This document shows, one piece after another, positions 42,237 to 56,790 of a stretch of 64,000 bases of DNA. The position numbers and the translations under genes are program-made. Where the stretch lies: positions 32,001-96,000 of IMG/VR virus record IMGVR_UViG_3300032092_000011. The stretch is one strand, 5' to 3'. The notes beneath the pieces are model-generated. The model saw only the letters and a program-made list of their open reading frames with translations, was not told the DNA's origin and searched no databases. This DNA comes from a virus. Position 1 is the stretch's first letter, and every line of letters starts with the position of its first letter.

Positions 42237-42255
42237 ATAAACATATTGGCATTTG

Positions 42256-42329
42256 TGATCCCGTCAGGATTCGAACCTGAGACCTACTGCTTAGAAGGCA
42301 GTTGCTCTATCCAGCTGAGCTACGAGACC
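42256..42329 (-). tRNA. tRNA-Arg(UCU)
   Basis: Cloverleaf; ACTGC-CTTCTAA-GCAGT. Confidence 0.95.
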
Positions 42330-42364
42330 ATTTTGTAAAAATACATTATCGTTCTCTAACGAGT

Positions 42365-42652
42365 TTATTTTTTATTCTTTACAGGATCGCAACCGTTTTT
42401 GATTGTGTCCATTAATCTTGACTCTAATTTGTCTAATCTTGAATCTAATTGAGAATGTGTATTACTCTCTAATTCATCTACTCTGCGATTAATATCGTTT
42501 CGAAGGTCTTCAATTTCAAGATATAAATCTTGACTTGTGCGTTCTAATTCTTTTTCTGTTTTTCGTGCCTTAAAGAATCCAACAACAGCAACTACTGCTA
42601 ATGCAATAACCACCACCGATGACATCCCTAAAACAAATGATGTTGTTTCCAT
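42365..42652 (-). CDS. TM plus coiled-coil protein embedded between tRNAs
   Basis: N-terminal TM; flanked by a 13-bp inverted repeat. Confidence 0.75.
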   Translation of the reverse strand: METTSFVLGMSSVVVIALAVVAVVGFFKARKTEKELERTSQDLYLEIEDLRNDINRRVDELESNTHSQLDSRLDKLESRLMDTIKNGCDPVKNKK

Positions 42653-42690
42653 AATCTTTATGTTTTTTTATGTCAAAGAACGATAATGTG

Positions 42691-42763
42691 AGCTTCCGAC
42701 AGGAATCGAACCTGCAACCTATTGATTACAAATCAATTGCTCTACCTATTGAGCTACAGAAGC
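42691..42763 (-). tRNA. tRNA-Thr(UGU)
   Basis: ATTGA-TTTGTAA-TCAAT. Confidence 0.95.
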
Positions 42764-42792
42764 ATAAATATATAATAACATATTATATATTC

Positions 42793-43242
42793 TTAATAAT
42801 GAAGGTCGATGAAAAGAAGGTCTTGCTCGTCTTCGTAAAAGACTGGTGACCAAGCTGGATGGTATTGTTCTAAAAGCTTAGAATCTTTTAGGTCTTGTAT
42901 ATATTGTTCTGGATCTTCGATTCCAGGATATTCAGGTTCTTCTCCATTTTTGCGTTTCTCAACTTCTTCCCTCATCTTGATATTTAATTCTTCAGCTTCA
43001 TAGAATGCATATCCTTTTTTTGGATAAACTCCCCATCCTTCTGCTTTGGTTCCAGGTGGATAAGTTCCTCCATCTGAAGTTTGCATACCAGAAATATCAA
43101 TGCCTTCAAAATACTTATCTTCTACACGTTGAATCATAATCTTAGCGGTCAATGGAATGTTACGTTCTTCAATAAATTCAAGTAAATCTTGAACTGTCAT
43201 TCCTTGACTTTCAATTATTTCATTTTTACCAATTATCCTCAT
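42793..43242 (-). CDS. hypothetical protein
   Basis: 149-aa ORF. Confidence 0.7.
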   Translation of the reverse strand: MRIIGKNEIIESQGMTVQDLLEFIEERNIPLTAKIMIQRVEDKYFEGIDISGMQTSDGGTYPPGTKAEGWGVYPKKGYAFYEAEELNIKMREEVEKRKNGEEPEYPGIEDPEQYIQDLKDSKLLEQYHPAWSPVFYEDEQDLLFIDLHY

Positions 43243-43258
43243 TAGAATTAAATATTTG

Positions 43259-43341
43259 TACCTCAGGAGAGACTCGAACTCTCAATGTCTTACGACGCTA
43301 GATCCTAAGTCTAGTGTGTCTACCAATTCCACCACCAAGGC
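43259..43341 (-). tRNA. tRNA-Leu(UAG)
   Basis: CTAGA-CTTAGGA-TCTAG; long variable arm. Confidence 0.95.
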
Positions 43342-43345
43342 AAGT

Positions 43346-43407
43346 TACGGGATGCTGTTTTGCTTTTTCCAATAAAAGTTTGTAAATTTGCTGAAAGCAT
43401 CCCTGTA
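43346..43407 (-). ncRNA. CAGCAAA-scaffold ncRNA, copy 1 (hairpin cargo)
   Basis: GGGATGC-TTTCAGCAAAT-...CTTTT attgga AAAAG...AAAACA-GCATCCC. Confidence 0.6.
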
Positions 43408-43419
43408 TTGTGGCGCTAA

Positions 43420-43632
43420 TTACTTAGCGGAAGGTGCCAATGTAGTTGGAGAAACACCAGGAGCAGCAGGATCAACTGTTACAGTTGAATCTGTTGATGT
43501 AGAATCAGTTACTACAGCAGTAGAATCAACAGCAGTTGAATCTGAACCAGTTGTAGCAGTTCCGCTACCATTACCACAAGATGTCAATCCAATTACCATT
43601 GCGATTGCGAAAAGAAAAGTGTACTTTTTCAT
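43420..43632 (-). CDS. small Thr/Ser-rich lipoprotein
   Basis: MKK + hydrophobic + LTSC lipobox; DST repeats. Confidence 0.8.
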   Translation of the reverse strand: MKKYTFLFAIAMVIGLTSCGNGSGTATTGSDSTAVDSTAVVTDSTSTDSTVTVDPAAPGVSPTTLAPSAK

Positions 43633-43660
43633 GTTTTTGTTATTTTTTGTTTATTTGATA

Positions 43661-43689
43661 ATTATATAGGGTACTTAATCTTTGTTTCA
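43661..43689 (-). promoter_or_regulatory. class II promoter TGAAAC-N17-TATAAT
   Basis: Exact motif; upstream of the lipoprotein and the distal tRNA cluster. Confidence 0.7.
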
Positions 43690-43692
43690 AGT

Positions 43693-44055
43693 TTATTTAG
43701 AAACTTTTTTGAACTCTAAGAATTCAGTTGCCATTACAGCATCTCTATAAGTTTTCATTGCCGACTTAAAACTAACAGGCCGGCCTGATTTAGTTACAAG
43801 ATGCGTAAATCCACCTAAATGATAATCTTCATTAGGAGACCAAATAAGATAATAATGCTTCTTAATTCTATTTTTAGAATTAAGTTCATATGCTGGAGCC
43901 AAAGATCCAGTTCTCCAATCTTCTTTAAGAACGTTAATACTTTCGGCAAGTGCAACATGCTTTGGTAGGCCAGGACCATAATTGGCCTCAGTCCTTTGAT
44001 ACTCTATTAGAATATCCATTTTACCAATTTTAATGTGTTCGATTTTTCTACTCAT
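43693..44055 (-). CDS. hypothetical protein
   Basis: ORF track 43693-44073; likely start MSRKI. Confidence 0.65.
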   Translation of the reverse strand: MSRKIEHIKIGKMDILIEYQRTEANYGPGLPKHVALAESINVLKEDWRTGSLAPAYELNSKNRIKKHYYLIWSPNEDYHLGGFTHLVTKSGRPVSFKSAMKTYRDAVMATEFLEFKKVSK

Positions 44056-44066
44056 AATTTTATTAT

Positions 44067-44270
44067 TTACCAAGAATCCTCATCTGTTAAATCTAACTCA
44101 AGTTTAGTTAAGTGATTGTATACTTTAATAGAAGATCCCATACCGTACGAAGTAACTGACCATGTCATTAGGCCATATTCTCCGAACAGATCTTTAATCT
44201 TTTTAGCCCATTCATCAAATTTGGACTATTGTTCGTCGGATAATTCGATTTGTATTACTTTATTTGACAT
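44067..44270 (-). pseudogene. 67-codon phage gene with an in-frame TAG at codon 15
   Basis: MSNKVIQIELSDEQ*SKFDEWAKKIKDLFGEYG...ELDLTDEDSW fills the gap exactly; TAG at 44226-44228. Confidence 0.65.
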
Positions 44271-45527: not shown

Positions 45528-45560
45528 AAGTATTATATGTTTGTTTCGGAAAAAGTTTAT

Positions 45561-45588
45561 AAAAAAACCCTGACGAAGTCAGGGTTTT
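45561..45588 (-). terminator. intrinsic terminator
   Basis: AAAACCCTGAC-gaa-GTCAGGGTTTT with a 7-U tract on the minus strand. Confidence 0.85.
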
Positions 45589-45609
45589 ATATGTAGATTT
45601 TAAATGTGA

Positions 45610-46644: not shown

Positions 46645-46693
46645 AGTAATTTACACAATTTTTATTTCTTTATATATTTCTAATATAAAATTG

Positions 46694-46766
46694 AGCGGAA
46701 GACGAGATTCGAACTCGCGACCCCAACCTTGGCAAGGTTGTGCTCTACCAGCTGAGCTACTTCCGC
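46694..46766 (-). tRNA. tRNA-Gly(GCC)
   Basis: CAACC-TTGCCAA-GGTTG. Confidence 0.95.
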
Positions 46767-46771
46767 ATTAT

Positions 46772-46858
46772 GGGTAGGATCAGACGTGTTCTGCATAGCA
46801 GGTCTGCCTACCGAGACCTCGTCGTTAACTTTCGTCAGAGCGTACCGAGACACTAGGT
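46772..46858 (-). ncRNA. candidate structured RNA
   Basis: GC-rich; GGTAGG/CCTACC, CAGAC/GTCTG and CTGC/GCAG stems; GAAA tetraloop hairpin. Confidence 0.4.
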
Positions 46859-46867
46859 AAAAATAAC

Positions 46868-46986
46868 AGGATGGGTTTTGTACGTGCTCTACCAACTGAG
46901 CTACTGGTCCCGAGAGATCAGGCCGGACTCGAACCGACGACCACGAGGTTAACAGCCTAGATTTTATTATTTGCAGTAACCATCCT
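46868..46986 (-). ncRNA. CAGCAAA-scaffold ncRNA, copy 2, carrying a circularly permuted tRNA-Asn(GUU)
   Basis: AGGATGG-TTACTGCAAAT...AGG CTGTTAA CCTCG TGGTC GTCGG TTCGAGT CCGGC CTGATCT ctcg GGACCAG TA GCTC AGTTGGTA GAGC A CG...AAAAC-CCATCCT. Confidence 0.85.
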
Positions 46987-46990
46987 TATT

Positions 46991-47956
46991 TTATATCTCA
47001 TTATATGATTCTTCTAATATTAAATTAATTTCATCAAATAATTCCTTATATTTTTCTTTAATCCCATTAAAATGATCTAAATCCGCTAATAATCTTAACA
47101 AAATAGAAATCCTAACATGCGGGTTATCATAAAGAAATTTCTTGCCCCAAATATGCTGTATCTCATCTTCTATTTTAAGACTCTCTTCGCTAGAACTAAT
47201 GTTAGGAATCCATCTTTTATTCCAAATCATTTCTTCCATATAGAGACATGCTCTATAAACATTTGGTTTAATAGTTCCATAGGATATTCCTAATTTTCTA
47301 GCTATAACAGGTAATAATCTTTGTTCAATAAAAAGAGAACTTCTTCTTTCAATTTTTTCATCATCTATTTCTTTATTGTATGATATTATCTTAATAGATT
47401 CGTCATACCAATTATCTATAAGTTCTCTTGTTCGATTTTTAAAATGAAGAATTGCAGCGTTTAATGGCCAATAATTCCAATTAAATCGATTAATATCTTC
47501 AAGATCTAGCCAATTAGAAGGATCATGGTACATGTTGTATTTTGAATCAGTATCAAAATTCTCTTTATGAAAGACATGGAAATCGTAACCCTTATCAATT
47601 AGATTTTTACCTTTAATCCATAAGTCAGTATCGAAGATACAAAACTCATTATACATTTTAGATAATTCTCTTGCTACAAATATTTTTGAAAAACTCCAAT
47701 ATCTAGATGCTTTATCTTTATGAGGCATTCTTGTTAATAAATGTAAATCGATTCCATCATATTCTTCAAATATCTTGTATTTTAAAATAGAATCTAAATG
47801 CTCTTGATTTGCAATTAACCGCATTGGACCATAATTTTCTTTCCAATATAAAACAGAGACAAGTTGTATTAAAACGTTGATTGCATCGTATTTATTATCT
47901 TTAATCTCTCTAAATTTATTTTCAAATTTATAATAAACATGATAGCCTCTAATCAT
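46991..47956 (-). CDS. putative nucleotide-sugar transferase (DUF6734-like)
   Basis: WSFSKI, FDTD (DxD), NAAI, IEQRLL, HIWG. Confidence 0.55.
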   Translation of the reverse strand: MIRGYHVYYKFENKFREIKDNKYDAINVLIQLVSVLYWKENYGPMRLIANQEHLDSILKYKIFEEYDGIDLHLLTRMPHKDKASRYWSFSKIFVARELSKMYNEFCIFDTDLWIKGKNLIDKGYDFHVFHKENFDTDSKYNMYHDPSNWLDLEDINRFNWNYWPLNAAILHFKNRTRELIDNWYDESIKIISYNKEIDDEKIERRSSLFIEQRLLPVIARKLGISYGTIKPNVYRACLYMEEMIWNKRWIPNISSSEESLKIEDEIQHIWGKKFLYDNPHVRISILLRLLADLDHFNGIKEKYKELFDEINLILEESYNEI

Positions 47957-47974
47957 TGTTCTATAATATATTTC

Positions 47975-48106
47975 GGATTCCTGTTATATGGACCAGCGCG
48001 TTTACCAATTTCGCCACCCTTCAGATTATTTATTCGATTGTTGAAGGGGTAGGACTCGAACCTACAGTATACCGGTTTCTTTCCTTAATTTTGCTGTAAG
48101 GAATCC
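47975..48106 (-). ncRNA. CAGCAAA-scaffold ncRNA, copy 3, carrying a permuted tRNA (Leu-type D-loop)
   Basis: GGATTCC-TTACAGCAAAA...ACCGG TATACT GTAGG TTCGAGT CCTAC CCCTTCA [18 nt] TGAAGGG TGGCGAAATTGGTAAACGC G CTGGT...AACA-GGAATCC. Confidence 0.8.
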
Positions 48107-48109
48107 ATT

Positions 48110-48186
48110 TGGCGGCTCGTACGGGACTCGAACCCGTGACCTTCGCCGTGACAGGGCGACATTGTAACCAACTCTACTAACGAGCC
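48110..48186 (-). tRNA. tRNA-Asp(GUC), CCA encoded
   Basis: TCGCC-CTGTCAC-GGCGA. Confidence 0.95.
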
Positions 48187-48192
48187 AAATAG

Positions 48193-48266
48193 TAGACAAT
48201 GATGGACTCGAACCATCGACCTCCTCGGTATCAGCGAGGCGCTCTAACCAACTGAGCTAAATGTCT
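48193..48266 (-). tRNA. tRNA-Ile(GAU)
   Basis: CCTCG-CTGATAC-CGAGG. Confidence 0.95.
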
Positions 48267-48386
48267 AAATATGAGAGGTCTCCGATGCCTCCTCTCGCGG
48301 TGGATATTTAATGACGTTTTGTATAATGCTGTATCAGCAAGTCGCAAGTTCCACTTATACGTCAAACTCGAATCGGTATTAAGGTG

Positions 48387-48458
48387 TAGCCCGTACGAGA
48401 ATCGAACTCGTCTCTCATCCGTGAAAGGGATGCGTCCTAACCGATAGACTAACGGGCC
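48387..48458 (-). tRNA. tRNA-Glu(UUC)
   Basis: CATCC-CTTTCAC-GGATG. Confidence 0.95.
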
Positions 48459-48465
48459 AAATTTG

Positions 48466-48537
48466 CTCCCCGGGTAGGATTTGAACCTACGACCACACGA
48501 TTAACAGTCGCGTGCTCTACCACTGAGCTACCGAGGA
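48466..48537 (-). tRNA. tRNA-Asn(GUU)
   Basis: CGCGA-CTGTTAA-TCGTG. Confidence 0.95.
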
Positions 48538-48547
48538 ATAAAATAAA

Positions 48548-48730
48548 TCTTCCATGCGCATTAACATGGTCAAGAAGTAACCGATGGTTTGTTCCCCATC
48601 GCCTGATGCCGTGCACAGCAGAGCAGGGTCTCCTACATAGCAACTCGGGGCATGATTACTCTCAATAAAGGTTGCGATCCTGCGAGAGCCGAGTTCCCTT
48701 TCAACGGTGCTAATCCGTCCTATGTGAGAT
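48548..48730 (-). ncRNA. candidate ~185-nt multi-stem ncRNA
   Basis: GC-rich spacer; ACATAG/CTATGT, AACTCGG/CCGAGTT, CTCTC/GAGAG, CGATGG/CCATCG and CCATG/CATGG stems. Confidence 0.55.
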
Positions 48731-48737
48731 TTATTCG

Positions 48738-48811
48738 TGGAGGATATCGGATTCGAACCGATGACCCCTTGCGTGCAAGGCAAGTGCTCTAGCCAACTGA
48801 GCTAATCCCCC
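48738..48811 (-). tRNA. tRNA-Ala(UGC)
   Basis: CTTGC-CTTGCAC-GCAAG. Confidence 0.95.
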
Positions 48812-48874
48812 GAAAAGAGTTAGGATCTGAGTCTTACGATACCTAGGATTCTTCTGCTCCATCCATACTCTCTT

Positions 48875-48950
<76 letters not shown>

Positions 48951-48958
48951 ATATATTG

Positions 48959-49029
48959 TTGTCCCCGAAGGATTCGAACCTCCACTAGATGGACCAAAAC
49001 CATCTGTCCTGCCATTAGACGAGAGGACA
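48959..49029 (-). tRNA. tRNA-Gln(UUG)
   Basis: GATGG-TTTTGGT-CCATC. Confidence 0.95.
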
Positions 49030-49035
49030 AGATAC

Positions 49036-49093
49036 TGGATGCGCTTGTGTCAAAGTTAAAGTTTGATTTTGTAAAATTTGCTGCATGCATCCA
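49036..49093 (-). ncRNA. CAGCAAA-scaffold ncRNA, copy 4 (anticodon-like hairpin cargo)
   Basis: TGGATGC-ATGCAGCAAAT-...TCAAA CTTTAAC TTTGA...-GCATCCA. Confidence 0.65.
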
Positions 49094-49099
49094 AAATTC

Positions 49100-49432
49100 T
49101 TATTGCTCTTCCGATATGTCAAAGATCGATTTGCCTTTTTTAGTCATAAAGATAATGTCTTCACCATTAGCATCTTCAACCCAATCAATTAGTCCATCTT
49201 CTTTCATTTGGTCTAATTCTTGATTAAATCTTGCTTTAAAAAAAGCATATTCAAATTGCTCTTCAGTCATTTGAAATTCTTCTCCTTTTGTAAAACATTC
49301 GAAGAATATTTCAGAAATAGATTCAACTAAATATTCAGGAGTTGGATCTTCTTCTTGCAATGTTGGTTTAAGTAATTCAACAACATTTTCAGCTTCAACT
49401 CTGACTTTCTGTGGCCAATTTGTTTTTTCCAT
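49100..49432 (-). CDS. acidic hypothetical protein (winged-helix-like C-terminus)
   Basis: GLIDW...IFMTKKG. Confidence 0.7.
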   Translation of the reverse strand: MEKTNWPQKVRVEAENVVELLKPTLQEEDPTPEYLVESISEIFFECFTKGEEFQMTEEQFEYAFFKARFNQELDQMKEDGLIDWVEDANGEDIIFMTKKGKSIFDISEEQ

Positions 49433-49434
49433 TG

Positions 49435-49701
49435 TTATTTTATAATGAATACTCGATAAGGTTTCATGAGTGTCAATTTAGAACCATCTGAATTGTAGTA
49501 CCAAATAGAATCTTCATTCTGACCATAAATTGTATCAGTGTACGCGATTGCTGGTCTAAGTTCTTCTGTAACATTAATCTCAGTCAAGCCAACTTGACGC
49601 TCGATTCTAGTTGGAACCATTCCTTCAATCTTGTACTTATATTCTTTACCTTTACATGAAAAGAAAAGAATTGATAAACCTATTGCATAAATTACTTTCA
49701 T
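49435..49701 (-). CDS. small lipoprotein
   Basis: Start moved to MKVIYAIGLSILFFSC (the upstream part overlaps a tRNA). Confidence 0.75.
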   Translation of the reverse strand: MKVIYAIGLSILFFSCKGKEYKYKIEGMVPTRIERQVGLTEINVTEELRPAIAYTDTIYGQNEDSIWYYNSDGSKLTLMKPYRVFIIK

Positions 49702-49713
49702 CTTATAAAATTT

Positions 49714-49802
49714 TGGTACTCGAGGCGGGAATCGAACCCGCACGAACCTTACGGTCCATCAGATTTTAAGTCTGACGTGTCTACCTATTCCACCACCCGA
49801 GC
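49714..49802 (-). tRNA. tRNA-Leu(UAA), CCA encoded
   Basis: TCAGA-CTTAAAA-TCTGA; long variable arm. Confidence 0.95.
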
Positions 49803-49842
49803 ATGTTTAAGTATCTTCAATAACTTTAAGAACGTTACATCT

Positions 49843-49871
49843 ATTATATCTGATGAAATCAGATTGTTTCA
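49843..49871 (-). promoter_or_regulatory. class II promoter TGAAAC-N17-TATAAT for the middle tRNA cluster
   Basis: Exact motif about 40 nt upstream of tRNA-Leu(UAA). Confidence 0.7.
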
Positions 49872-49886
49872 TAACATGTTATTGAA

Positions 49887-52800
49887 TTATCCGCAATAAA
49901 GATAACCGTAGATTCCAGTTGCCTTACCTTCACTATCAAAAGTACAATCTTCCATACATTTACCCAATGTAAATGAATTTATAGTTTGTCTTTCCTCGTA
50001 TTGAGGTGTTCCATTGTCAAATCCAATAATGACATATTCAACTGGTTGTTTCATTGCGTATCCTGGTACGTCAGAAGAACATAGTAAATCTCCTTTTAGA
50101 ACTGGACCATTTTGGTTACATACTTTTATACCTTGTAATCCTGTTTTAGCATCGAATGAATCTCCTAATGAAGCAACTCTCCATATACTTTTTTGATTTC
50201 TGTCCGCCAATGGTATTTTATTTCCAAATGAATCTCTATATTGATAATCTTTTTCTGAAGTATCTTTTCCATTTATTAAGAATCTATCTAATGGACTTTC
50301 CTGTATAGAAAAATCAACTTCTTGCCATAAAATACCAACAATTGCCGGGTCTTTTGCAGAAGATGCTTTAACTAATTCATTGTTTCCATCTAATTTAACA
50401 AGATCTCCAACTTCTAATATAACATCATTTCTTTTAGTATATTGGTGAGACAATGTTGTTGCTATTGCTTCTCCATATGGTTGCTCACGAGGATCTGTAC
50501 CTCCTCTGTAATTTACATAGTCATCTGCGAGTAATTCAAAATCTTGTTGATATTGAATAAAATTAGTTTTCGTTGATTCAAAATCAGTTTTAAAAGCACC
50601 AAATCTTGTAGTTCCAATGTACGCATCATTTCTCATTTTAAGCATTTGACGTGCACCTAATTCCGGATCTTCAACGATGTCAACTTCAAAGAAATCATTC
50701 ATTGGACTTCCGCCTACCGTAGCACCTGAAGTAATATCAATATCTCCTTTAAATGCTGCGGTACCGTCTGGTGCAATATAGAAGTTTTTAGCATTGATTG
50801 CACCTAGATCTAAGTTAATACCCATACCAGCCGTAGAATAAGTATTCCATGCTGATGTGTGATTTGCTGGGAAGTTACCATTCTTAATTATACCAGTAGT
50901 TATCTTTCCACCATCAATAGTAGTGGATGTTGTTAAAAACTGAGAAGTATCTGGAGCTGGACCTTGTGGACCTGTGGCTCCCTGAATAGATTTTGCAAAA
51001 CTTTGAGTTTTAGTAAAGCTAAAACTTGCACCATTTGCTCTTTTTCCAGAAATCGTGTATGTTATCGATGCTGTATTAGCTGTCATATTATTATGATCGC
51101 CAATCGTTGCATAATTACCGCTATCAGTAATACTTCCCGGAGTAATTGAACTACCTGTTCTTGTTAAAGTCCATCTACTAGCAGAGGTTCCTGATCCATC
51201 ATAAATTAATTCAGTAGCTCCTTCATATAATCTTATGGTAGTTCCTGAACCAGTATAAGTAACAACACCAGCACTAGTTGTAGGTAAAGTATGCGCTTCA
51301 TTACTAAGAATTACTGTCATACCATCAGTACCAGGTGCTCCATCGATACCATTAACGCCATCAACTCCGTCTCTACCATTAACGCCATCAACTCCGTCTC
51401 TACCATTAGTACCATTAGTACCATTAGCACCATTAGTACCATTAGTTCCTGGTTTAATTCCAGACATTGTGATTTGGTCACGTGCTAAAACTGTACCTGT
51501 TGTACCGCCTTCTCTAATCTGTACTTCTATTTTGTCAGGCATACTGTCAAAACTAGATTGTGGAGTATATGTGTATGTTGTAGAAGTACCATTTTGAACA
51601 GATACATCATTTTTAAAGAATTGATAATATACAGTTCCGCTTGTATTTAAAGCAGCTGCAGTAATTGTAGTGCTTGTAGGAGATGGAGTTGTTCCAGAAG
51701 TATTATATACAAATACCTGATCTACACAAGTTAGGTTTACAGCTCTTGCATTTGCTCCAGCTGCACCGTCTGCTCCGTCTGCACCGTCAACACCATTAGC
51801 ACCTTGAATAGATTTTGCAAAACTTTGAGTTTTAGTAAAGCTAAAGCTTGTACCATTTGCTCTTTTTCCAGTAATAGCATACACTATAGAAGCTACGTTA
51901 GCAGTCATGTTGCTGTGATCGCCAATCGTTGCATAATTACCGCTATCAGTAATACTTCCCGGAGTAATTGAACTCCCTGTTCTTGTTAAAGTCCATTTAC
52001 CAGCGGTAGAACCAGATCCATCATAGACTAATTCAGTAGCGCCTTCATATAATCTTATAGTAGTTCCTGAACCAGCATATGTAACTGTTCCTGTGTTTGT
52101 TGTTGGCAGAGTATGTGCTTCATTACTAAGAATTACTGTCATACCATCAGTACCAGGTGCTCCATCGATACCATTAACGCCATCAACTCCGTCTCTACCA
52201 TCAGTACCATCAGTACCATTAGTTCCTGGTTTAATTCCAGACATTGTGATTTGGTCACGTGCTAAAACTGTGCCTGTTGTACCGCCTTCTCTAATCTGTA
52301 CTTCTATCTTGTCAGGCATGCTAGCAAAACTAGATTGTGGAGTATATGTGTATGTTGATGCTGTCCCATTTTGAACAGATACATCATTTTTAAAGAATTG
52401 ATAATATACAGTTCCGCTTGTATTTAAAGCAGCGGCTGTTATTACTGAACTAACTGGTGAAGGATTTGTTCCGGACGCATCATATACAAATACCTGATCT
52501 ACGCAAGTTAGGTTTACGGCTCTTGCATTTGCTCCAGCTGAACCGTCTGCTCCGTCTGCTCCGTCAACACCGTCAGCTCCTTTGACTAAAACCCAATTAT
52601 AAAGTGATGAATCTGTTGAATCAGCTTCGGTAAAATCAGTATAAGTTCCCATATACTCTCTACCAGTCGGATCGCTTACGCTAAAATCAATAATTTGATT
52701 GCTGCCATTTTTATTTGCATATGCAATATGTAAATATGAAGTTTGTCCATCAACACCATTAACACCAGGAAGACCATTCTCACCATTAGCTCCATCAGCA

Positions 52801-54854
52801 CCTTTAACTAATTGCCATTTCCATAAAGTACTTCCAGATGGTGCATCAGCAGCGGTTGTATCAACATAAGTACCTATGTATAATTTTCCGGCTGCGTTTT
52901 GACTAAAGCCTCCTCCAGAAGCATTGTCAGCATATGCAATGTGAAAATACGTTGAAACACCATCAGCGCCAGGAGCACCAGGAAGACCATCTGCACCGTC
53001 TAAACCATTAGTACCTGGGGCACCTTGTGGGCCAGGAGCTCCATCTACACCATTAGTACCAGCAGGACCTTGTGGACCGGCAGAAAAACTAACAGCTCCA
53101 TTAAATGCAACTTGTCCATCGATAATAGAGAATGGAGTTAATAATTGTCCATTTGGACCTCCAGTAGATACTTTAAAAGAATCTGCTGTAAATGAAATTG
53201 AACTACCTGTTTCATCAGCTCCTAATCTCATTCCAGCAACATTACCATCAGCATTTACTTCTAGAGTATATTGTGCATTTACTTTATTAGTAAGAGCATT
53301 AATATCAGCACTCATTGATTGAGTTACTCCAGCAGTTTGTTCTTCTAATTCTGCTATTAAATTAGTTGTTGAAGTTACAGTTGCTTGATTAGCAGTTGCA
53401 ATTGCTGAATCAATAACTGTTTTAAGAGCAGAAGACTGGCTAAAACCAGTTATTGATCCATTATCTATTGTATATTGTGCTTCTAGTGTATTTAATCTAG
53501 TTACAGTTGCTCCATCACCATTACTTAAAGAAGCAATCTCTTCACTAATATTTGTTAATGCCTCTGCTCTAATAGCAGCTTCTCCAGCAATTGCTTCAGC
53601 AATATCAACTTCGAATTGCGTACCTAAATTAGTAACTGAAAGAGCAACGGCTTCATTAGCAGTTGTTAATGCGGATATTGAACTTTCAACTCCTGCAATT
53701 GCCTGTGTTCTTAAAAGATTTTGATTATCTTCTAGGTCTGTTAAATCACTTGCAAATGAAGCACTTAAATTAGTTACTGCTTGTGCAGTTGCTGAATTAG
53801 CATCATTTAACGTAGTCAATGTTTGATTTATACTGGAAATTGCTGATGTTCTTGCTTGAGTTTCAATTCCTAAAAGTCGTGCTCTTTCAGCAGCTTCTTC
53901 AGCAATAGCACTAACTCTTTCAGCAGCTTCTGCTTCTAAATCTTCAATTGTTGCTAATCCAGTTAAATCAGCACCTGGAATTGAACTTACAGCACTTTGA
54001 ATTGCTGATGTTCTAGCCAATACTTCAGCTGCTAGAGCATTTTGTCTTGCTAATGCTTCAGTTGAAATTGCTCCAGTAATTTCACTAGTAAAAGATGTGC
54101 TTAAATCCGTAACTGATTGCGCAGTTGCTTCATTAGCATTAGATAGTGAAGTTAAAGTTTGATTAATATCTGAAATTGCAGATATTCTTAATGCTGCTTC
54201 AGAACTAACAGCAGCTTCAATTTCAGCTTCAAAAGAAGTATTTATATTATTTACTGTTTCGGCAAGAGCTTCATTAGCATTAGATAATGAAGTTATAGTT
54301 TGATTTATATTTGAAATTGCAGCTGTTCTTGCTAATGTTTCAGCGCCAACTGCTGTTTCAATTTCAGCTTCAAAAGAAGTATTTATATTATTTACAGTTT
54401 GTGCGAGTGCTGAATTTGAATTAGCTAATGTTGTTAATTGACTAGTTACGCTTGTTAATGCTTGTGTTCTAGCTGTTGTTTCTAAACCAATAACTCGGGC
54501 TCTTTCAGCTGCTTCTTCTAATAATCTACTATTAGTAACTAATTCATTACCATTAACTTGCATATTACCATTAGCCATGCTAATTGAATTTGATCCAAGA
54601 TAGATTGTGCTGTTACTTAAGTAAATATCTCTAAATCTTAGAGTTGGCGTACCTAAATCATGAATTTCATTTTGATCAGGTATAATACTAAATGCAACTT
54701 GTCCATTAAAAGACGAACCAGTCCCGCCTTCAAAACCATCAAGTAGTTCAGAAATTTCAGTAAGTTGCTGATTAATTGCAGCAAAATTATCGTTAAGCGT
54801 TTTACGCGAATCTTTTATACCATCGGTTCCTAGTAGTGGTGTTATTGAAGCCAT
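49887..54854 (-). CDS. mosaic tail fibre / host-specificity protein
   Basis: Coiled-coil repeats; lambda J/DUF1983-like YTLEVNADGNVAGMRLG..FTADSF; HIAYA..GTY repeats; collagen linkers; C-terminal NQNGPVLKGDLLCSSDVPGYAMKQ chaperone-like domain. Confidence 0.8.
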   Translation of the reverse strand: MASITPLLGTDGIKDSRKTLNDNFAAINQQLTEISELLDGFEGGTGSSFNGQVAFSIIPDQNEIHDLGTPTLRFRDIYLSNSTIYLGSNSISMANGNMQVNGNELVTNSRLLEEAAERARVIGLETTARTQALTSVTSQLTTLANSNSALAQTVNNINTSFEAEIETAVGAETLARTAAISNINQTITSLSNANEALAETVNNINTSFEAEIEAAVSSEAALRISAISDINQTLTSLSNANEATAQSVTDLSTSFTSEITGAISTEALARQNALAAEVLARTSAIQSAVSSIPGADLTGLATIEDLEAEAAERVSAIAEEAAERARLLGIETQARTSAISSINQTLTTLNDANSATAQAVTNLSASFASDLTDLEDNQNLLRTQAIAGVESSISALTTANEAVALSVTNLGTQFEVDIAEAIAGEAAIRAEALTNISEEIASLSNGDGATVTRLNTLEAQYTIDNGSITGFSQSSALKTVIDSAIATANQATVTSTTNLIAELEEQTAGVTQSMSADINALTNKVNAQYTLEVNADGNVAGMRLGADETGSSISFTADSFKVSTGGPNGQLLTPFSIIDGQVAFNGAVSFSAGPQGPAGTNGVDGAPGPQGAPGTNGLDGADGLPGAPGADGVSTYFHIAYADNASGGGFSQNAAGKLYIGTYVDTTAADAPSGSTLWKWQLVKGADGANGENGLPGVNGVDGQTSYLHIAYANKNGSNQIIDFSVSDPTGREYMGTYTDFTEADSTDSSLYNWVLVKGADGVDGADGADGSAGANARAVNLTCVDQVFVYDASGTNPSPVSSVITAAALNTSGTVYYQFFKNDVSVQNGTASTYTYTPQSSFASMPDKIEVQIREGGTTGTVLARDQITMSGIKPGTNGTDGTDGRDGVDGVNGIDGAPGTDGMTVILSNEAHTLPTTNTGTVTYAGSGTTIRLYEGATELVYDGSGSTAGKWTLTRTGSSITPGSITDSGNYATIGDHSNMTANVASIVYAITGKRANGTSFSFTKTQSFAKSIQGANGVDGADGADGAAGANARAVNLTCVDQVFVYNTSGTTPSPTSTTITAAALNTSGTVYYQFFKNDVSVQNGTSTTYTYTPQSSFDSMPDKIEVQIREGGTTGTVLARDQITMSGIKPGTNGTNGANGTNGTNGRDGVDGVNGRDGVDGVNGIDGAPGTDGMTVILSNEAHTLPTTSAGVVTYTGSGTTIRLYEGATELIYDGSGTSASRWTLTRTGSSITPGSITDSGNYATIGDHNNMTANTASITYTISGKRANGASFSFTKTQSFAKSIQGATGPQGPAPDTSQFLTTSTTIDGGKITTGIIKNGNFPANHTSAWNTYSTAGMGINLDLGAINAKNFYIAPDGTAAFKGDIDITSGATVGGSPMNDFFEVDIVEDPELGARQMLKMRNDAYIGTTRFGAFKTDFESTKTNFIQYQQDFELLADDYVNYRGGTDPREQPYGEAIATTLSHQYTKRNDVILEVGDLVKLDGNNELVKASSAKDPAIVGILWQEVDFSIQESPLDRFLINGKDTSEKDYQYRDSFGNKIPLADRNQKSIWRVASLGDSFDAKTGLQGIKVCNQNGPVLKGDLLCSSDVPGYAMKQPVEYVIIGFDNGTPQYEERQTINSFTLGKCMEDCTFDSEGKATGIYGYLYCG
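50984..52570 (-). repeat. internal tandem duplication (~0.8 kb, 2 copies) in the fibre gene
   Basis: GANARAVNLTCVDQVFVY...KTQSFAKSIQG block repeated with high DNA identity. Confidence 0.85.
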
Positions 54855-54905
54855 TTCTTAGTTATTTTATATTTTAAATATCGTATTATATATTTAGTTT
54901 TTTTG

Positions 54906-54990
54906 CGGAAGCTACAGGATTCGAACCTGTGGGACCGTGAAGTCCGCCACTTTAGCAAAGTGGCACGATAGACCGCTCTGACAAACTTCC
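54906..54990 (-). tRNA. tRNA-Ser(GCU)
   Basis: CCACT-TTGCTAA-AGTGG; long variable arm. Confidence 0.93.
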
Positions 54991-54992
54991 AA

Positions 54993-55069
54993 TGGGGTGA
55001 CCAGTGGGGATCGAACCCACGACAACTAGAACCACAATCTAGTGCTCTACCAACTGAGCTATGGCCACC
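54993..55069 (-). tRNA. tRNA-His(GUG), G-1 and CCA encoded
   Basis: CTAGA-TTGTGGT-TCTAG. Confidence 0.95.
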
Positions 55070-55074
55070 ATGTG

Positions 55075-55149
55075 TTGCGAGACCGGGACTCGAACCCGGA
55101 ACTTCGGCTTATGAGACCGACGAGATAACCATTTTCTACGCATCTCGCA
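55075..55149 (-). tRNA. tRNA-Met(CAU)
   Basis: TCGGT-CTCATAA-GCCGA. Confidence 0.88.
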
Positions 55150-55156
55150 ATATAAT

Positions 55157-55286
55157 AAAAAGAGGTTTCGGGTCTTTCAGGGTTACTGATTATTAATGTT
55201 AAGGAGATGGGTGCACTGTCTACTCTAAACCCTTTTTCGACCTTTTTCCATCTAATTAATAATTACAGCTTCACTACCTCTTTTTT
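55157..55286 (-). ncRNA. candidate rod-shaped ncRNA with internal bubbles (6S-like shape)
   Basis: Nested stems AAAAGAGGT/ACCTCTTTT, ATTATTAAT/ATTAATAAT and AGATGG/CCATCT. Confidence 0.5.
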
Positions 55287-55287
55287 G

Positions 55288-55359
55288 TAGTCAATAAAGG
55301 ATTCGAACCCTTATCTCTTGATCCGTAGTCAAGTGTTCTATCCGTTGAACTAATCGACT
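55288..55359 (-). tRNA. tRNA-Arg(ACG)
   Basis: CTTGA-CTACGGA-TCAAG. Confidence 0.95.
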
Positions 55360-55367
55360 AAATTATG

Positions 55368-55441
55368 TGGACCAGCCTGGGCTCGAACCAGGGACCTACG
55401 CATTATGAGTGCGGTGCTCTAACCAACTGAGCTACAAGTCC
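55368..55441 (-). tRNA. tRNA(CAU), probably Ile2 (lysidine)
   Basis: CGCA-CTCATAA-TGCG; Ile-type body GGACTTG..CTGGTCCA; third CAU tRNA in the window. Confidence 0.8.
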
Positions 55442-55447
55442 ATTTTG

Positions 55448-55518
55448 CACGGGTGGAGAGATTCGAACTCCCATCGACGGTTTTGGAGACCGGAATGCTA
55501 CCATTGCACCACACCCGT
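55448..55518 (-). tRNA. tRNA-Trp(CCA)
   Basis: CGGT-CTCCAAA-ACCG. Confidence 0.93.
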
Positions 55519-55521
55519 AAA

Positions 55522-55659
55522 TTAAGGAAAAGAGAAGATGGTTCAGTGGACATCTCTTTTTACAATCGGCTTTACTTTGGTTTATACCTGCAAACTCCGA
55601 TAATAACGATCAGTATAAACTCTTGAATCATAGTTATTATCATTCCCCGATTAACCTTA
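55522..55659 (-). ncRNA. candidate multi-stem ncRNA
   Basis: TAAGG/CCTTA, AATCGG/CCGATT, GATAATAAC/GTTATTATC and AGATG/CATCT stems. Confidence 0.5.
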
Positions 55660-55660
55660 G

Positions 55661-55742
55661 TGCCTGCAGAAGGACTCGAACCTCCGAACCCGTAAGGGAG
55701 CTGATTTACAGTCAGCTGCAATTGCCGCTATGCGATACAGGC
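55661..55742 (-). tRNA. tRNA-Tyr(GUA)
   Basis: GCTGA-CTGTAAA-TCAGC. Confidence 0.95.
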
Positions 55743-55814
55743 AAATTCCAATTTTGATGGGCTCATCTGATAATATGTTTCAATTACCCAGCACTTGAGA
55801 TTGGGAACTCCTAG

Positions 55815-55889
55815 TACATCTTGAAGGATTCGAACCTCCGACCCTCTCGGTGTAAACGAGATGCTCTAAACCAACTGAGCTAAAGATGC
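55815..55889 (-). tRNA. tRNA-Val(UAC)
   Basis: TCTCG-TTTACAC-CGAGA. Confidence 0.95.
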
Positions 55890-55894
55890 ATGGC

Positions 55895-55988
55895 GCTTCA
55901 TATTATTCACAATTGATAATCATATTGGATTATCCACTCAAACTTACGACAGCTTTTAACTGAGAGATCGTAAGATTGTGTATGAAGC
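55895..55988 (-). ncRNA. candidate structured spacer RNA
   Basis: GCTTCATA/TATGAAGC closing helix; CTTACGA/TCGTAAG and GATAATC/GATTATC stems. Confidence 0.5.
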
Positions 55989-55993
55989 ATGTG

Positions 55994-56067
55994 TGACCCC
56001 GACAAGATTCGAACTTGTGACTCCCTCATTAAAAGTGAGGTGCTCTAGCCAACTGAGCTACGAGGTC
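55994..56067 (-). tRNA. tRNA-Lys(UUU)
   Basis: CCTCA-CTTTTAA-TGAGG. Confidence 0.95.
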
Positions 56068-56161
56068 AAATTTCGTCTTTTCCTTACCGCTTACTATTCA
56101 CATTGCCAGTCCGAAGTTACTGTCGGATGCTTACTTCTTTCGAAGAGTCAATAGTACATTG

Positions 56162-56233
56162 AGCAGGTAGAGAGAATCGAACTCTCATCTCCAGATTGGA
56201 AGTCTGGAGTAATAGCCGTTATACGATACCTGC
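56162..56233 (-). tRNA. tRNA-Gly(UCC)
   Basis: CCAGA-CTTCCAA-TCTGG. Confidence 0.95.
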
Positions 56234-56239
56234 TTGTTG

Positions 56240-56315
56240 TCGGATAGGCAAGATTCGAACTTGCGTGCTCTGCATCCCAAATGCAGCGAGATAAACCTAA
56301 CTCCTCTACTATCCG
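56240..56315 (-). tRNA. tRNA-Pro(UGG)
   Basis: CTGCA-TTTGGGA-TGCAG. Confidence 0.93.
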
Positions 56316-56324
56316 TTTATTTTG

Positions 56325-56397
56325 TGGTGCGGGGCAGGATCGAACTGCCGACACCAGGATTTTCAGTCCTGTGCTCTACCTACTGAGCTACCGCACC
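56325..56397 (-). tRNA. tRNA-Phe(GAA)
   Basis: CAGGA-CTGAAAA-TCCTG. Confidence 0.95.
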
Positions 56398-56403
56398 AAG
56401 TTG

Positions 56404-56473
56404 AGTACAAGGTTGGAATCGAACCAACTCCGCAGATTTTGCAGACCTGCTGGCCTCCAAGACCAACTCGTAC
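56404..56473 (-). tRNA. tRNA-Cys(GCA)
   Basis: GCAGG-TCTGCAAAA-TCTGC region with GCA anticodon; short D-arm. Confidence 0.88.
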
Positions 56474-56486
56474 TTTTTTTGCCAAT

Positions 56487-56498
56487 ATGTCAAAGAAC
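56487..56498 (-). promoter_or_regulatory. boxA-like antitermination element
   Basis: GTTCTTTGACAT just before the first tRNA; identical copy at 42670-42681. Confidence 0.6.
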
Positions 56499-56516
56499 TC
56501 TTGTTCCTAAAACTTT

Positions 56517-56560
56517 ATGCTAATATAAACAAAAAGTTTCAAATAAAAAAATATTTCAAA
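56517..56560 (-). promoter_or_regulatory. class I promoter variant for the tRNA array
   Basis: TTTTTATTTGAAACTTTTTGTTTATATTAGCAT. Confidence 0.55.
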
Positions 56561-56583
56561 AACTTTTTCACTTTCACCTAAAT

Positions 56584-56615
56584 AAAAAAAGCTCGACTTT
56601 TAACGGTCGAGCTTT
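56584..56615 (-). terminator. attenuator terminator hairpin
   Basis: AAAGCTCGAC-cgttaaaa-GTCGAGCTTTTTTT. Confidence 0.9.
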
Positions 56616-56644
56616 CTTGTTAGGATATATGAATATTCAAACTG

Positions 56645-56737
56645 TTACAAGAGAGCCCGCCCACGATCACATGCGCCATACGGTTTAACGCTAAACCATA
56701 AATTCATGTTTTCGATATGTTGCCCTATTCGTTGCAT
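56645..56737 (-). CDS. leader (attenuator) peptide of the tRNA operon (missing from the ORF track)
   Basis: MQRIGQHIENMNLWFSVKPYGACDRGRALL*; its 3' end pairs 14/16 with the terminator 5' arm. Confidence 0.85.
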   Translation of the reverse strand: MQRIGQHIENMNLWFSVKPYGACDRGRALL

Positions 56738-56757: not shown

Positions 56758-56786
56758 ATTATAATCTATATATCGGTATTGTTTCA
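56758..56786 (-). promoter_or_regulatory. class II promoter TGAAAC-N17-TATAAT (with embedded GATATATA) for the leader
   Basis: Exact motif about 20 nt upstream of the leader ATG. Confidence 0.7.
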
Positions 56787-56790
56787 AAAA

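Follow-up and report, generated by a model that had tools for sequence, protein, structure and literature searches.

The tRNA genes and their surroundings

The window analyzed here, a stretch of 64,000 nt taken from a 109.8-kb IMG/VR record, probably derives from an uncultured large phage of Bacteroidota. In agreement with the original prediction, ARAGORN places 25 tRNA genes in it, all on the minus strand, and these are the full tRNA complement of the record. Twenty-two of them lie proximal to a short open reading frame (ORF), the leader, and three are distal. The features of the locus, in the direction of transcription, are the following.

56758-56787, minus strand: promoter-like site before the leader, TTGAAAC-N17-TATAAT, with 11 of 12 consensus matches
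56645-56737, minus strand: leader ORF, 30 codons plus stop, with 19 amino-acid types
56679-56700, minus strand: apical 9-bp hairpin within the ORF (codons 13-20), found in the minimum-free-energy folds of all three variants
56647-56659, minus strand: antiterminator 5' strand (region 2), from codon 27 to the first base of the stop codon, pairing with 56620-56608
56608-56620, minus strand: antiterminator 3' strand (region 3), pairing with 56659-56647 and overlapping the 5' arm of the terminator
56580-56618, minus strand: intrinsic terminator with a 13-bp stem, an 8-nt loop and seven T (folds at -14.2 kcal/mol)
56482-56498, minus strand: boxA, GTTCTTTGACATATTGG, 8 nt upstream of tRNA-Cys, assigned by 17-mer identity
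54905-56473, minus strand: first tRNA block, 13 genes (ARAGORN)
49887-54854, minus strand: tail-fibre-like gene of 1655 aa with collagen-like parts and PHROG matches to tail fibre and host-range proteins
49843-49871, minus strand: second promoter with an exact TGAAAC-N17-TATAAT sequence, immediately before tRNA-Leu(UAA), without a leader ORF
46693-49802, minus strand: second proximal tRNA block (ARAGORN)
45561-45585, minus strand: intrinsic terminator after a 344-aa ORF, a G+C-rich stem followed by seven T, which closes the proximal region
43661-43690, minus strand: third consensus promoter, by sequence match, which heads the distal unit
42255-43632, minus strand: distal unit (ARAGORN tRNAs, ORFs and a boxA)

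The first block encodes tRNAs for Cys, Phe, Pro, Gly-UCC, Lys, Val, Tyr, Trp, CAU, Arg-ACG, CAU, His, and Ser-GCU. The second has Leu-UAA, Gln, an initiator-like CAU, Ala, Asn, Glu, Ile-GAU, Asp, and Gly-GCC, together with small ORFs, a boxA-like site, and matches to the freshwater-1 and YrlA-like RNAs. Among the CAU tRNAs, that at 55367-55441 resembles Ile2 and that at 48875-48950 an initiator. As originally predicted, Thr-UGU, Arg-UCU, and Leu-UAG lie beyond the terminator at 45585-45561 and behind a promoter of their own (43690-43661), and both elements are present. Their unit comprises a Thr-rich lipoprotein ORF (43632-43420), tRNA-Leu(UAG), a 149-aa ORF, tRNA-Thr(UGU), a boxA (42681-42669), a 95-aa ORF, and tRNA-Arg(UCU). 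The related genome G001 has an equivalent distal unit, which also carries Ile-GAU.

The fibre gene is an insertion between the two proximal blocks, which had been proposed to be a single regulon later split by this gene. In line with this proposal, the two clusters are adjacent in G001 and in L090, where the fibre gene is absent from the equivalent place. However, the promoter before tRNA-Leu(UAA) is kept at the equivalent place in both, and is thus conserved in all three genomes, so that the second cluster also has its own leaderless promoter.

The leader ORF, its hairpins, and boxA

The leader ORF sits between a promoter (56787-56758) and the tRNA genes (from 56473). The window contains five exact TGAAAC-N17-TATAAT sites, this promoter among them, and G001 and L005 retain it. 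The 5' UTR is A-rich and lacks a Shine-Dalgarno site, which is present in only 9 of 53 genes of this phage; a true lipoprotein gene of the phage has a matching promoter and a similar 5' UTR, again without such a site. The leader ORF is presumably translated.

The composition of the leader is unusual. All 19 amino-acid types fall within codons 1-24, Thr alone being missing, and such a diversity (at least 19 types in 24 codons) is expected with P = 7.8e-5 given the amino-acid usage of the phage and P = 2.6e-4 in shuffles of the leader's own bases. Across the six frames of the window, which hold 39,002 stop-free 24-codon windows, the leader is the sole locus to reach this number. We found no runs of repeated regulatory codons: an amino acid is used at most three times in the 30 codons and at most twice in codons 1-24.

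As predicted, each proximal tRNA can read a leader codon, and 21 of the 22 do so by Watson-Crick or standard wobble pairing; the reading of GTT by Val-UAC requires a modified U34, and that of ATA requires that one of the three CAU tRNAs be Ile2. In codons 1-26, Arg is encoded only by CGA/CGT, Leu by TTA, and Ser by AGC, a match to the tRNAs that has P ~0.03 given the peptide (Ser x Arg x Arg x Leu). The CGG at codon 27 has no reader among the 25 phage tRNAs. The claim that the leader has no ACN, AGR, or CTN codon is correct for codons 1-28 and fails at codon 29, which is CTC. At the level of amino acids, the leader covers 11 of the 11 types of the first block (leaving Met out of the count), but this cover is uninformative in the window alone (hypergeometric P 0.1-0.4). 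Because a leader of 19 types fits almost any array, the codon match in the window alone is weak evidence.

Seven variants of the peptide are on record, with the first 25 residues nearly invariant and a variable C-terminus. The single-base changes at codons 10, 16, and 25 of the three DNA variants are all synonymous and at the third position, codon 25 being CGT, CGA, or CGG; the one other change in codons 1-25 is ATC>ACA at codon 8 of L005. In the 14 distinct sequences of the group-B cassettes, the ORF frame has 0 stops, versus 37 and 66 in the other two. The variable sites of their ORFs are spread evenly over the three codon positions (22, 23, and 23; pS 0.32, pN 0.26), which fits a scenario where only translation matters, and also fits a non-coding RNA.

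Two mutually exclusive structures can form at the end of the leader. The antiterminator pairs 12 of 13 positions (-17.0 kcal/mol), with z = -4.95, a value reached by 0 of 300 shuffles (z = -4.65 in G001 and -4.49 in L008). G001 and L005 can form an equivalent pairing, in which one T-A pair has become A-T by compensatory change, and their terminator stem carries a compensatory T-A to C-G change. Over 59 unique cassettes, the antiterminator has P < 0.01 in 13, when about 0.6 are expected, and the pairing usually ends 0-18 nt from the ORF end (stop codon included). It is not significant relative to shuffles in the main group-B cassettes and in L082; the group-B consensus fold is limited to the terminator and a small hairpin that surrounds the stop codon. 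The apical hairpin, whose loop contains the AGC>AGT change, is a possible pause hairpin.

When the transcript is folded as it is prior to synthesis of the terminator 3' arm, the antiterminator has a probability of 0.79-0.99, which drops to 0.3-0.5 (0.0-0.3 in L008) only when the footprint of a ribosome is placed at codon 23 or beyond. At equilibrium, the full-length leader of the window keeps the terminator in almost every ribosome position (P 0.64-0.97), and a model of attenuation therefore requires kinetic control. No Rfam family matched the leader region, and no T-box (RF00230) was detected at E <= 1 between 41000 and 58000.

The 17-mer boxA before tRNA-Cys is identical to the boxA of the 16S-23S spacer of Bacteroidota rRNA operons; Pedobacter, Flavihumibacter, and Niabella are among the genera that have it between tRNA-Ala and the 23S rRNA. 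Dozens of phage arrays have it 7-14 nt ahead of a tRNA, and more copies precede other tRNAs. The boxA-like site of the second block (49127-49111) has two mismatches to the 17-mer, one of them within the 13-mer core. Since boxA works as RNA, by bringing NusB and SuhB to the polymerase (PMC4807359), transcripts of the array must start upstream of it and pass the terminator; Nus factors would load there. In L008, boxA begins two bases past the T run of the terminator. In L082/L090 and in the group-B cassettes a tRNA begins 10-15 nt past the terminator, too close for a promoter to fit in between. In the window, about 60 additional bases separate boxA from the terminator, and a weak promoter-like site among them (TGAAAC-N16-CATAAA) could bypass the switch.

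Leaders and tRNA blocks across related cassettes

The original prediction proposed to compare the leader with the array across relatives, and we did so in about 40 related cassettes from IMG/VR, with hand-chosen ORFs and tRNA blocks that are cut by the ends of the loci. Leaders track the tRNAs behind them, by amino acid and, for Leu and Arg, by codon family. They cover 0.929 of the tRNA amino-acid types of their own block, versus 0.808 +/- 0.018 for shuffled leaders (none of 20,000 reaches the observed value), and the result holds with one leader per sequence cluster (permutation P < 0.002). The pooled odds ratio between leader and block is 5.0. The codon families used for Leu and Arg follow the isoacceptor of the block (P = 0.0014 and 0.0085, respectively), and that of Ser does not in these cassettes. 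The broader the block, the more diverse its leader tends to be (rho = 0.45, P = 0.019), and genomes with two blocks have leaders that complement each other.

Interpretation and related systems

Given the anatomy and conservation of the locus, its alternative pairings, the boxA identity, and the tracking seen across the family, we think it reasonably probable that the 30-codon ORF and the hairpins downstream constitute a ribosome-mediated (leader-peptide) transcription attenuator that gates the phage tRNA genes. We infer that translation of the leader is coupled to termination. The polymerase would start at the 56787-56758 promoter and copy the leader, whose final codons (CGG GCT CTC TTG T) could pair with the 5' arm of the terminator and thereby block it. 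A fast ribosome would sit on the last codons or the stop, letting the terminator form and ending transcription around 56580, while a ribosome slowed anywhere in the first ~22 codons would let the antiterminator form and the polymerase continue. The latter would then copy the boxA shared with the host rRNA spacer, may take on Nus factors, and would become processive through the untranslated array. Across this family, leaders are written in the amino acids of the tRNAs behind them, with Leu and Arg in the matching codon families; the array of this phage is nearly complete, and so its leader is nearly pan-amino-acid. Having one or two codons per amino acid and no run, it should respond weakly to the shortage of a single tRNA, unless depletion is severe. 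The succession of a test leader, a switchable terminator, and a boxA before the tRNAs suggests that the phage probably makes these tRNAs on demand.

A stricter version of the link between leader and cargo was part of the original prediction: co-evolution codon by codon, with Thr, AGR, and CTN excluded because their tRNAs are in a separately regulated distal unit. We regard it as unlikely. It is consistent with the observation that, in the window and in G001, the leader lacks a single amino acid, Thr, for which only the distal unit supplies a tRNA, with the restricted codons at positions 1-26, and with the Leu and Arg families across cassettes; moreover, since a ribosome at codon 23 or beyond no longer favours the antiterminator, omitting codons 27-30 from the comparison is mechanistically defensible. 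However, a single missing amino acid coincides with the distal unit by chance 1 time in 20, and the relatives contradict the exclusion. The close variant L005 (peptide P0002, on 11 contigs) carries Thr (ACA), CGG, and AGG at codons 8, 25, and 27, respectively. In the outgroup L090/L082, which has the same array order, the leader contains Thr though tRNA-Thr is distal, and lacks Cys and Glu though both tRNAs are proximal. G001 lacks proximal tRNAs for two codons that its leader keeps, GGC (it has no tRNA-Gly(GCC)) and ATC (its Ile-GAU is distal), and P0001 has lost GGC. Finally, Thr is still present in 6 of the 9 leaders whose block has no tRNA-Thr. The link between sensor and cargo is supported at the level of amino acids and of Leu/Arg codon families and not as an exclusion of Thr, AGR, and CTN codons, for which an adaptive meaning can only be conjectured; a deliberate setting-apart of the three unsampled tRNAs is not established.

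Two other explanations were weighed. The promoter, ORF, and terminator could be a small gene in its own right, for a micro-protein or dual-function small RNA, with the tRNAs expressed by constitutive leak past its terminator or from other promoters and no regulatory coupling. The self-completeness of this unit, the dominance of its strong terminator at equilibrium, the high conservation of the first 25 residues in close relatives, and the second, leaderless promoter that serves part of the array all speak in its favour, but a small gene leaves unexplained the conserved and significant complementarity between the ORF 3' end and the terminator 5' arm, as well as leaders whose composition tracks the block, including complementary ones in the same genome. 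Across the family the peptide is almost free to vary, and in relatives a tRNA or boxA adjoins the terminator. Overall, the small gene is a distinctly improbable account. One could also see the region as a non-coding structured 5' leader of the tRNA precursor, e.g. a processing or boxB-like element, whose open frame and diversity are incidental. The fold is indeed strong (z = -5.6 and -4.4), the AAC>AAT, AGC>AGT, and CGT>CGA changes fit the hairpin, and neither a Shine-Dalgarno site nor, in group B, codon-position bias is present. Yet every variant keeps the frame open, whereas stops come and go in the other frames, codon 25 occurs in three synonymous forms, the diversity has P ~1e-4 even with the leader's own base composition, and the amino acids track the tRNAs; a missing Shine-Dalgarno site is normal for this phage, and the region has no Rfam match. 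We thus consider a purely non-coding leader very unlikely.

If the attenuator exists, its role may be broader than the sensing of individual tRNAs. Tentatively, the leader could monitor, as a sentinel, all of the infected cell's decoding capacity, with boxA then providing an rRNA-like processive polymerase. With about one codon per amino acid, the depletion of any host tRNA, for example by anticodon nucleases or other tRNA-targeting defences (PMC10264068, PMC11555353), would stall the ribosome and open the attenuator, thereby turning on the phage's replacement tRNAs until decoding recovers and the loop closes.

Decades of debate surround the question of why phages have tRNA genes (PMC10264068), and our literature search found no paper describing a leader-peptide attenuator before phage tRNA arrays. 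If the proposed mechanism is true, the phage gauges decoding capacity and supplies tRNAs on demand, and codon compensation versus escape from tRNA-cleaving defences becomes directly testable with a reporter. Classical attenuation would extend from enzyme operons to RNA genes, and phages would borrow the antitermination signal of host rRNA, a signal that would serve as a host-phylum marker for uncultured phages.

The closest relatives of the proposed element are the leader-peptide attenuators of the amino-acid operons of enterobacteria, i.e. trpL, hisL, pheL, thrL, and the multivalent ilvGMEDA (modelled in PMC1183508; for pheL see PMC3082878). The phage locus shares with them a short ORF between promoter and cargo, exclusive terminator and antiterminator structures with an antiterminator strand at the ORF end, codons related to what the cargo supplies, and, as proposed here, termination upon timely arrival of the ribosome. 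In contrast, its cargo consists of tRNA genes instead of biosynthetic enzymes, its leader samples up to 19-20 amino acids with one or two codons each and no run, and a boxA follows the terminator. It is also phage-borne, probably operates in Bacteroidota, and lacks a Shine-Dalgarno site.

The antitermination of rRNA operons relies on boxA and on the Nus factors NusB, NusE(S10), NusA, NusG, and SuhB (PMC4807359, PMC10250234). As in these operons, the phage has a boxA, identical over 17 nt to that of many Bacteroidota 16S-23S spacers, within the transcribed leader that precedes a long operon of untranslated RNAs. It differs in placing this predicted Nus site 7-14 nt before tRNA genes, after an attenuator, and no boxB or boxC was identified in the phage element.

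T-box riboswitches sense tRNA charging directly and control a terminator. The phage element would similarly couple the state of the tRNA pool to a choice between terminator and antiterminator. Yet, it has neither a specifier loop nor a T-box motif, and sensing would run via the translating ribosome, over many codons at once.

Organization of the tRNA region

The window covers bases 32001-96000 of its source, an IMG/VR virus record. This record has a length of 109.8 kb and an estimated completeness of 42%, and all of its 25 tRNA genes lie on the minus strand between 42255 and 56473 of the window. The original prediction associated 22 of them, in two proximal clusters, with the codons of a short leader ORF and set the other three apart in a distal unit. 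This observation is confirmed, and the interpretation given to it is partly supported. Every proximal tRNA can indeed read one of the leader codons listed, with the provisos that Val-UAC reads GTT only if its U34 is modified and that ATA requires a lysidine-type CAU tRNA. Thr-UGU, Arg-UCU, and Leu-UAG indeed lie beyond the 45585-45561 terminator and behind the promoter at 43690-43661.

Features of the tRNA region in the window
56787-56758 (-): promoter-like site TTGAAAC-N17-TATAAT, ahead of the leader
between this site and the leader ORF (-): A-rich 5' UTR
56737-56645 (-): leader ORF, 30 codons
56618-56580 (-): terminator, a 13-bp hairpin followed by seven T
56498-56482 (-): motif GTTCTTTGACATATTGG, upstream of tRNA-Cys; exact 17-mer of boxA (rRNA-type antitermination motif)
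56473 (-): start of the first tRNA gene, tRNA-Cys
49887-54854 (-): tail-fibre-like gene inside the tRNA region, 1655 aa, with collagen-like parts
49871-49843 (-): exact consensus promoter without leader, directly before tRNA-Leu(UAA); kept in the closely related virus genome G001 and in the outgroup locus L090
49111-49127 (-): boxA copy with two mismatches, one within the core
45585-45561 (-): good terminator closing the proximal region
43690-43661 (-): third consensus promoter, ahead of the distal unit
42669-42681 (-): boxA copy, 13-nt core match only

Exact TGAAAC-N17-TATAAT sites occur five times in the whole window (1806, 2385, 43689, 49871, and 56786). The proximal clusters had been seen as one regulon later split by the fibre gene. 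This gene is absent at that place from G001 and L090, and it is most simply regarded as an insertion in this lineage, between tRNA-Ser and the tRNA-Leu(UAA) promoter. The idea of a single regulon calls for qualification, because the second cluster has a promoter of its own, whose conservation means that the nine tRNAs have their own entry point; they can also be reached by read-through from the first block. At the site where the window carries the fibre gene, between tRNA-Ser(GCU) and the internal promoter, G001 has a tRNA-like sequence with a long insert (locus L004, ~14010-14125 (-)).

Several other elements are found in these arrays. A match to the freshwater-1 RNA (RF02979) lies between tRNA-Ala and tRNA-Asn (48576-48637 (-); 69.4 bits for a gathering score of 72, E = 1.5e-14), and a YrlA Y RNA-like match (RF02553; 43.5 bits, below the gathering score) lies just upstream of tRNA-Gly(GCC), at 46854-46970 (-). 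The distal unit opens with a small lipoprotein ORF (43420-43632 (-) in the window, 8062-8250 (-) in L004) that is very Thr-rich in both phages and stands directly ahead of the tRNA-Thr unit. We considered it as a Thr-sensing distal leader but set this aside, since it has a signal peptide and a lipobox and no terminator behind it. Immediately 5' of tRNA-Leu(UAG) there is a hairpin, GGGATGC...CAGCAAA...GCATCCC (43346-43405 (-)), with no T run after it; it is conserved in G001 (L004, ~7985-8040 and ~6640-6700 (-)), where it also stands 5' of tRNA-Thr. ARAGORN identified tmRNA-like genes in two related phage contigs (L004, 7065-7352 (-), and L051, 1220-1600 (-)), the one of G001 having the tag ANDNFALAA.

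The leader ORF and its predicted switch

Codons 1-24 of the leader encode 19 amino-acid types, Thr alone being missing, and no second locus reaches 19 types in a six-frame scan of the window (39,002 stretches of 24 codons free of stops). The chance of such diversity is 7.8e-5 given the amino-acid usage of the phage, and 2.6e-4 in shuffles of the leader's own bases. The sensing segment of the leader was said to lack ACN, AGR, and CTN codons: this holds for codons 1-28, but codon 29 is CTC. The match between leader and tRNAs is weak evidence when this window is taken alone, since the synonymous codon usage by which codons 1-26 are readable has, given the peptide, P ~0.03, and the cover of the block amino acids is nearly automatic (P 0.1-0.4 for the 18 non-Met types). 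Codon 27 (CGG) is without any reading phage tRNA. Among codons rare in the phage, the leader uses GGG twice, CGG, CCG, CTC, and AGC.

The same leader occurs in G001 (IMGVR_UViG_3300021963_000133, loci L002 and L004), where a neighbouring protein has 76% identity to its counterpart in the window, and a third DNA variant was found in a 1-kb metagenome contig (L005). Protein collections contain seven peptide variants, in which residues 1-25 are almost invariant and the C-terminus is variable. Among the three DNA variants, codons 10, 16, and 25 have single-base changes, all of them synonymous and at the third position (CGT, CGA, or CGG at codon 25). The sole other change in codons 1-25 is ATC to ACA at codon 8 of L005, which replaces the second Ile by Thr and gives this leader all 20 amino acids within 24 codons (P ~1e-6). 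The corresponding Thr-containing peptide, P0002, is present on 20-kb contigs, and another variant, P0001, has the second Gly changed to Ala. Searches of the phage record collection by blastn and tblastn revealed no relatives, and a degenerate leader pattern had no match in species genomes. For the conserved Trp-Phe core, a role as an arrest peptide was also considered; Trp in the leader goes with tRNA-Trp in the block.

The last ORF codons (56659-56647) can pair at 12 of 13 positions with the 5' arm of the terminator (56620-56608), giving an antiterminator duplex of -17.0 kcal/mol in the window (z = -4.95). An 8-9-bp version of it is kept in G001 and L005, with one compensatory pair, and the terminator stem shows a compensatory change as well. 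When the transcript was folded as it stands before the 3' arm of the terminator is made, with ribosome footprints, the antiterminator was the default state (P 0.79-0.99), lost only with a footprint on the stop codon or from codon 23 onwards. Folding of the full-length leader of the window at equilibrium, under ribosome masks, favours the terminator and shows no switch; hence, the decision would need kinetic control of the kind known from trp-type attenuators. The leader would then act as a gauge of translation speed: a ribosome crossing the ORF in time would block the antiterminator and transcription would stop, whereas a delay in the decoding of any one of codons 1 to ~22 would let the polymerase pass the terminator.

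Leaders and tRNA cargo across cassettes

We searched the fetched loci for cassettes by architecture only (an ORF, a terminator, and a tRNA within 300 nt) and obtained 59 unique ones. A significant duplex between ORF end and terminator arm (P < 0.01) is present in 13 of the 59, for ~0.6 expected. Extreme amino-acid diversity is not universal in such leaders, a possibility that we ruled out given a mean z of only +0.64 over the 59 cassettes. It marks the clade of the window, whose leaders have 17-20 types within codons 1-24; all 20 occur in the 31 residues of one leader (L051:912-1007:-), and three others (L082:3055-3150:-, L008:5540-5626:+, and L095:4485-4577:-) have 18 each. Leader diversity correlates positively with the breadth of the tRNA block behind it (rho = 0.45, P = 0.019).

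Tracking of the cargo by the leader at first seemed refuted. The G001 leader keeps GGC without Gly-GCC, and ATC though Ile-GAU is in the distal unit, while the L008, L095, and L082 leaders each lack two amino acids whose tRNAs stand in their own block. Family-level tests overturned this judgement: nearly complete leaders are simply uninformative on tracking. In three two-cassette genomes (L078, L084, and L076) Glu and Gly are missing from the long leader, and those of L078 and L084 lack Asp and Ala as well; the long leader of L076 does contain Asp. The missing amino acids have their tRNAs in the other block, which follows a second leader that is rich in precisely these residues, and each of these leaders has a complete (100%) cover of the block behind it. 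In the set of 40 unique cassettes the own-block cover amounts to 0.929, compared with 0.808 +/- 0.018 when leaders are shuffled (a value reached in 0 of 20,000 shuffles); when each of the 29 sequence clusters was represented by a single leader, P stayed below 0.002 in all 200 resamplings. The odds ratio pooled over amino acids is 5.0 (P = 5e-10, uncorrected for relatedness). Codon families follow the isoacceptors too: TTR:CTN is 10:2 in leaders before blocks with only the Leu-UAA type and 7:20 before those with only the Leu-UAG type (P = 0.0014), and CGN:AGR is 14:5 for Arg-ACG blocks and 1:7 for Arg-UCU blocks (P = 0.0085). There was no such effect for Ser codon families in the 40-cassette set. 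The comparison of leaders with anticodons across genomes, a check set beforehand, thus bears out the general idea of a match between sensor and cargo.

The prediction for this locus that we regard as rather probable is a functional attenuator of the ribosome-mediated type, matched to the tRNA genes behind it. An adaptive basis for the fine partition of codons (Thr, AGR, and CTN) seems unlikely to us. These codons had been thought to be left out because their tRNAs are distal, but L005 contains an acquired Thr codon as well as AGG and CGG, and the leader of L090/L082, the outgroup with the same array order, has Thr with a distal tRNA-Thr and lacks Cys and Glu, whose tRNAs are both proximal. Thr is also present in 6 of the 9 leaders without tRNA-Thr in the block. 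Our remaining confidence is shared between two readings, a stand-alone small gene and a non-coding leader. In group B, a set of related cassettes with 14 distinct sequences, there are 0 stops in the ORF frame, against 37 and 66 in the other two, and variable sites are even over the three codon positions (pS ~ pN), as expected if translation matters but the peptide does not.

boxA, probable host, and known attenuators

The motif before tRNA-Cys, GTTCTTTGACATATTGG, is an exact copy of the boxA of Bacteroidota rRNA spacers; its reading as a promoter (extended -10 or Bacteroidota -7 box) was dropped on this account. Exact copies of the 17-mer are present in >116 IMG/VR contigs, in dozens of which the motif stands 7-14 nt before a tRNA of a phage array. 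Among species genomes it is found almost only in Bacteroidota (e.g., Pedobacter, Mucilaginibacter, Chitinophaga, and Niabella), between tRNA-Ala and 23S rRNA, which is the spacer boxA position of rRNA operons according to spacer boxA work as cited in PMC4807359. Niabella has a boxA-like GTTCTTTAAAA upstream of the 16S gene too. Two phage arrays with the same boxA (L009 and L072) carry tRNAs with anticodon CTA, would-be amber suppressors, the one of L009 lying ~3095 nt behind its leader.

Since boxA works at the RNA level, transcription of the array must begin upstream of the motif and run through the terminator. The boxA of L008 begins two bases after the T run of the terminator, and in L082/L090 and the group-B cassettes the tRNA begins 10-15 nt after the terminator, which leaves no room for a separate promoter between them. 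The motif also indicates that the phage host is probably a member of Bacteroidota, in agreement with the near absence of Shine-Dalgarno sites in the phage (present in 9 of 53 genes). A true lipoprotein gene of the phage shares the promoter of the leader and its type of 5' UTR.

Full-text literature searches returned no paper that describes an attenuator or a boxA in the tRNA arrays of phages. The logic proposed for the locus is that of known leader-peptide attenuators (PMC1183508, PMC3082878), with which it shares four defining features, whereas their runs of regulatory codons are absent from its leader. New relative to these systems are the nature of the cargo (tRNA genes), a leader that samples nearly all amino acids, and the boxA behind.
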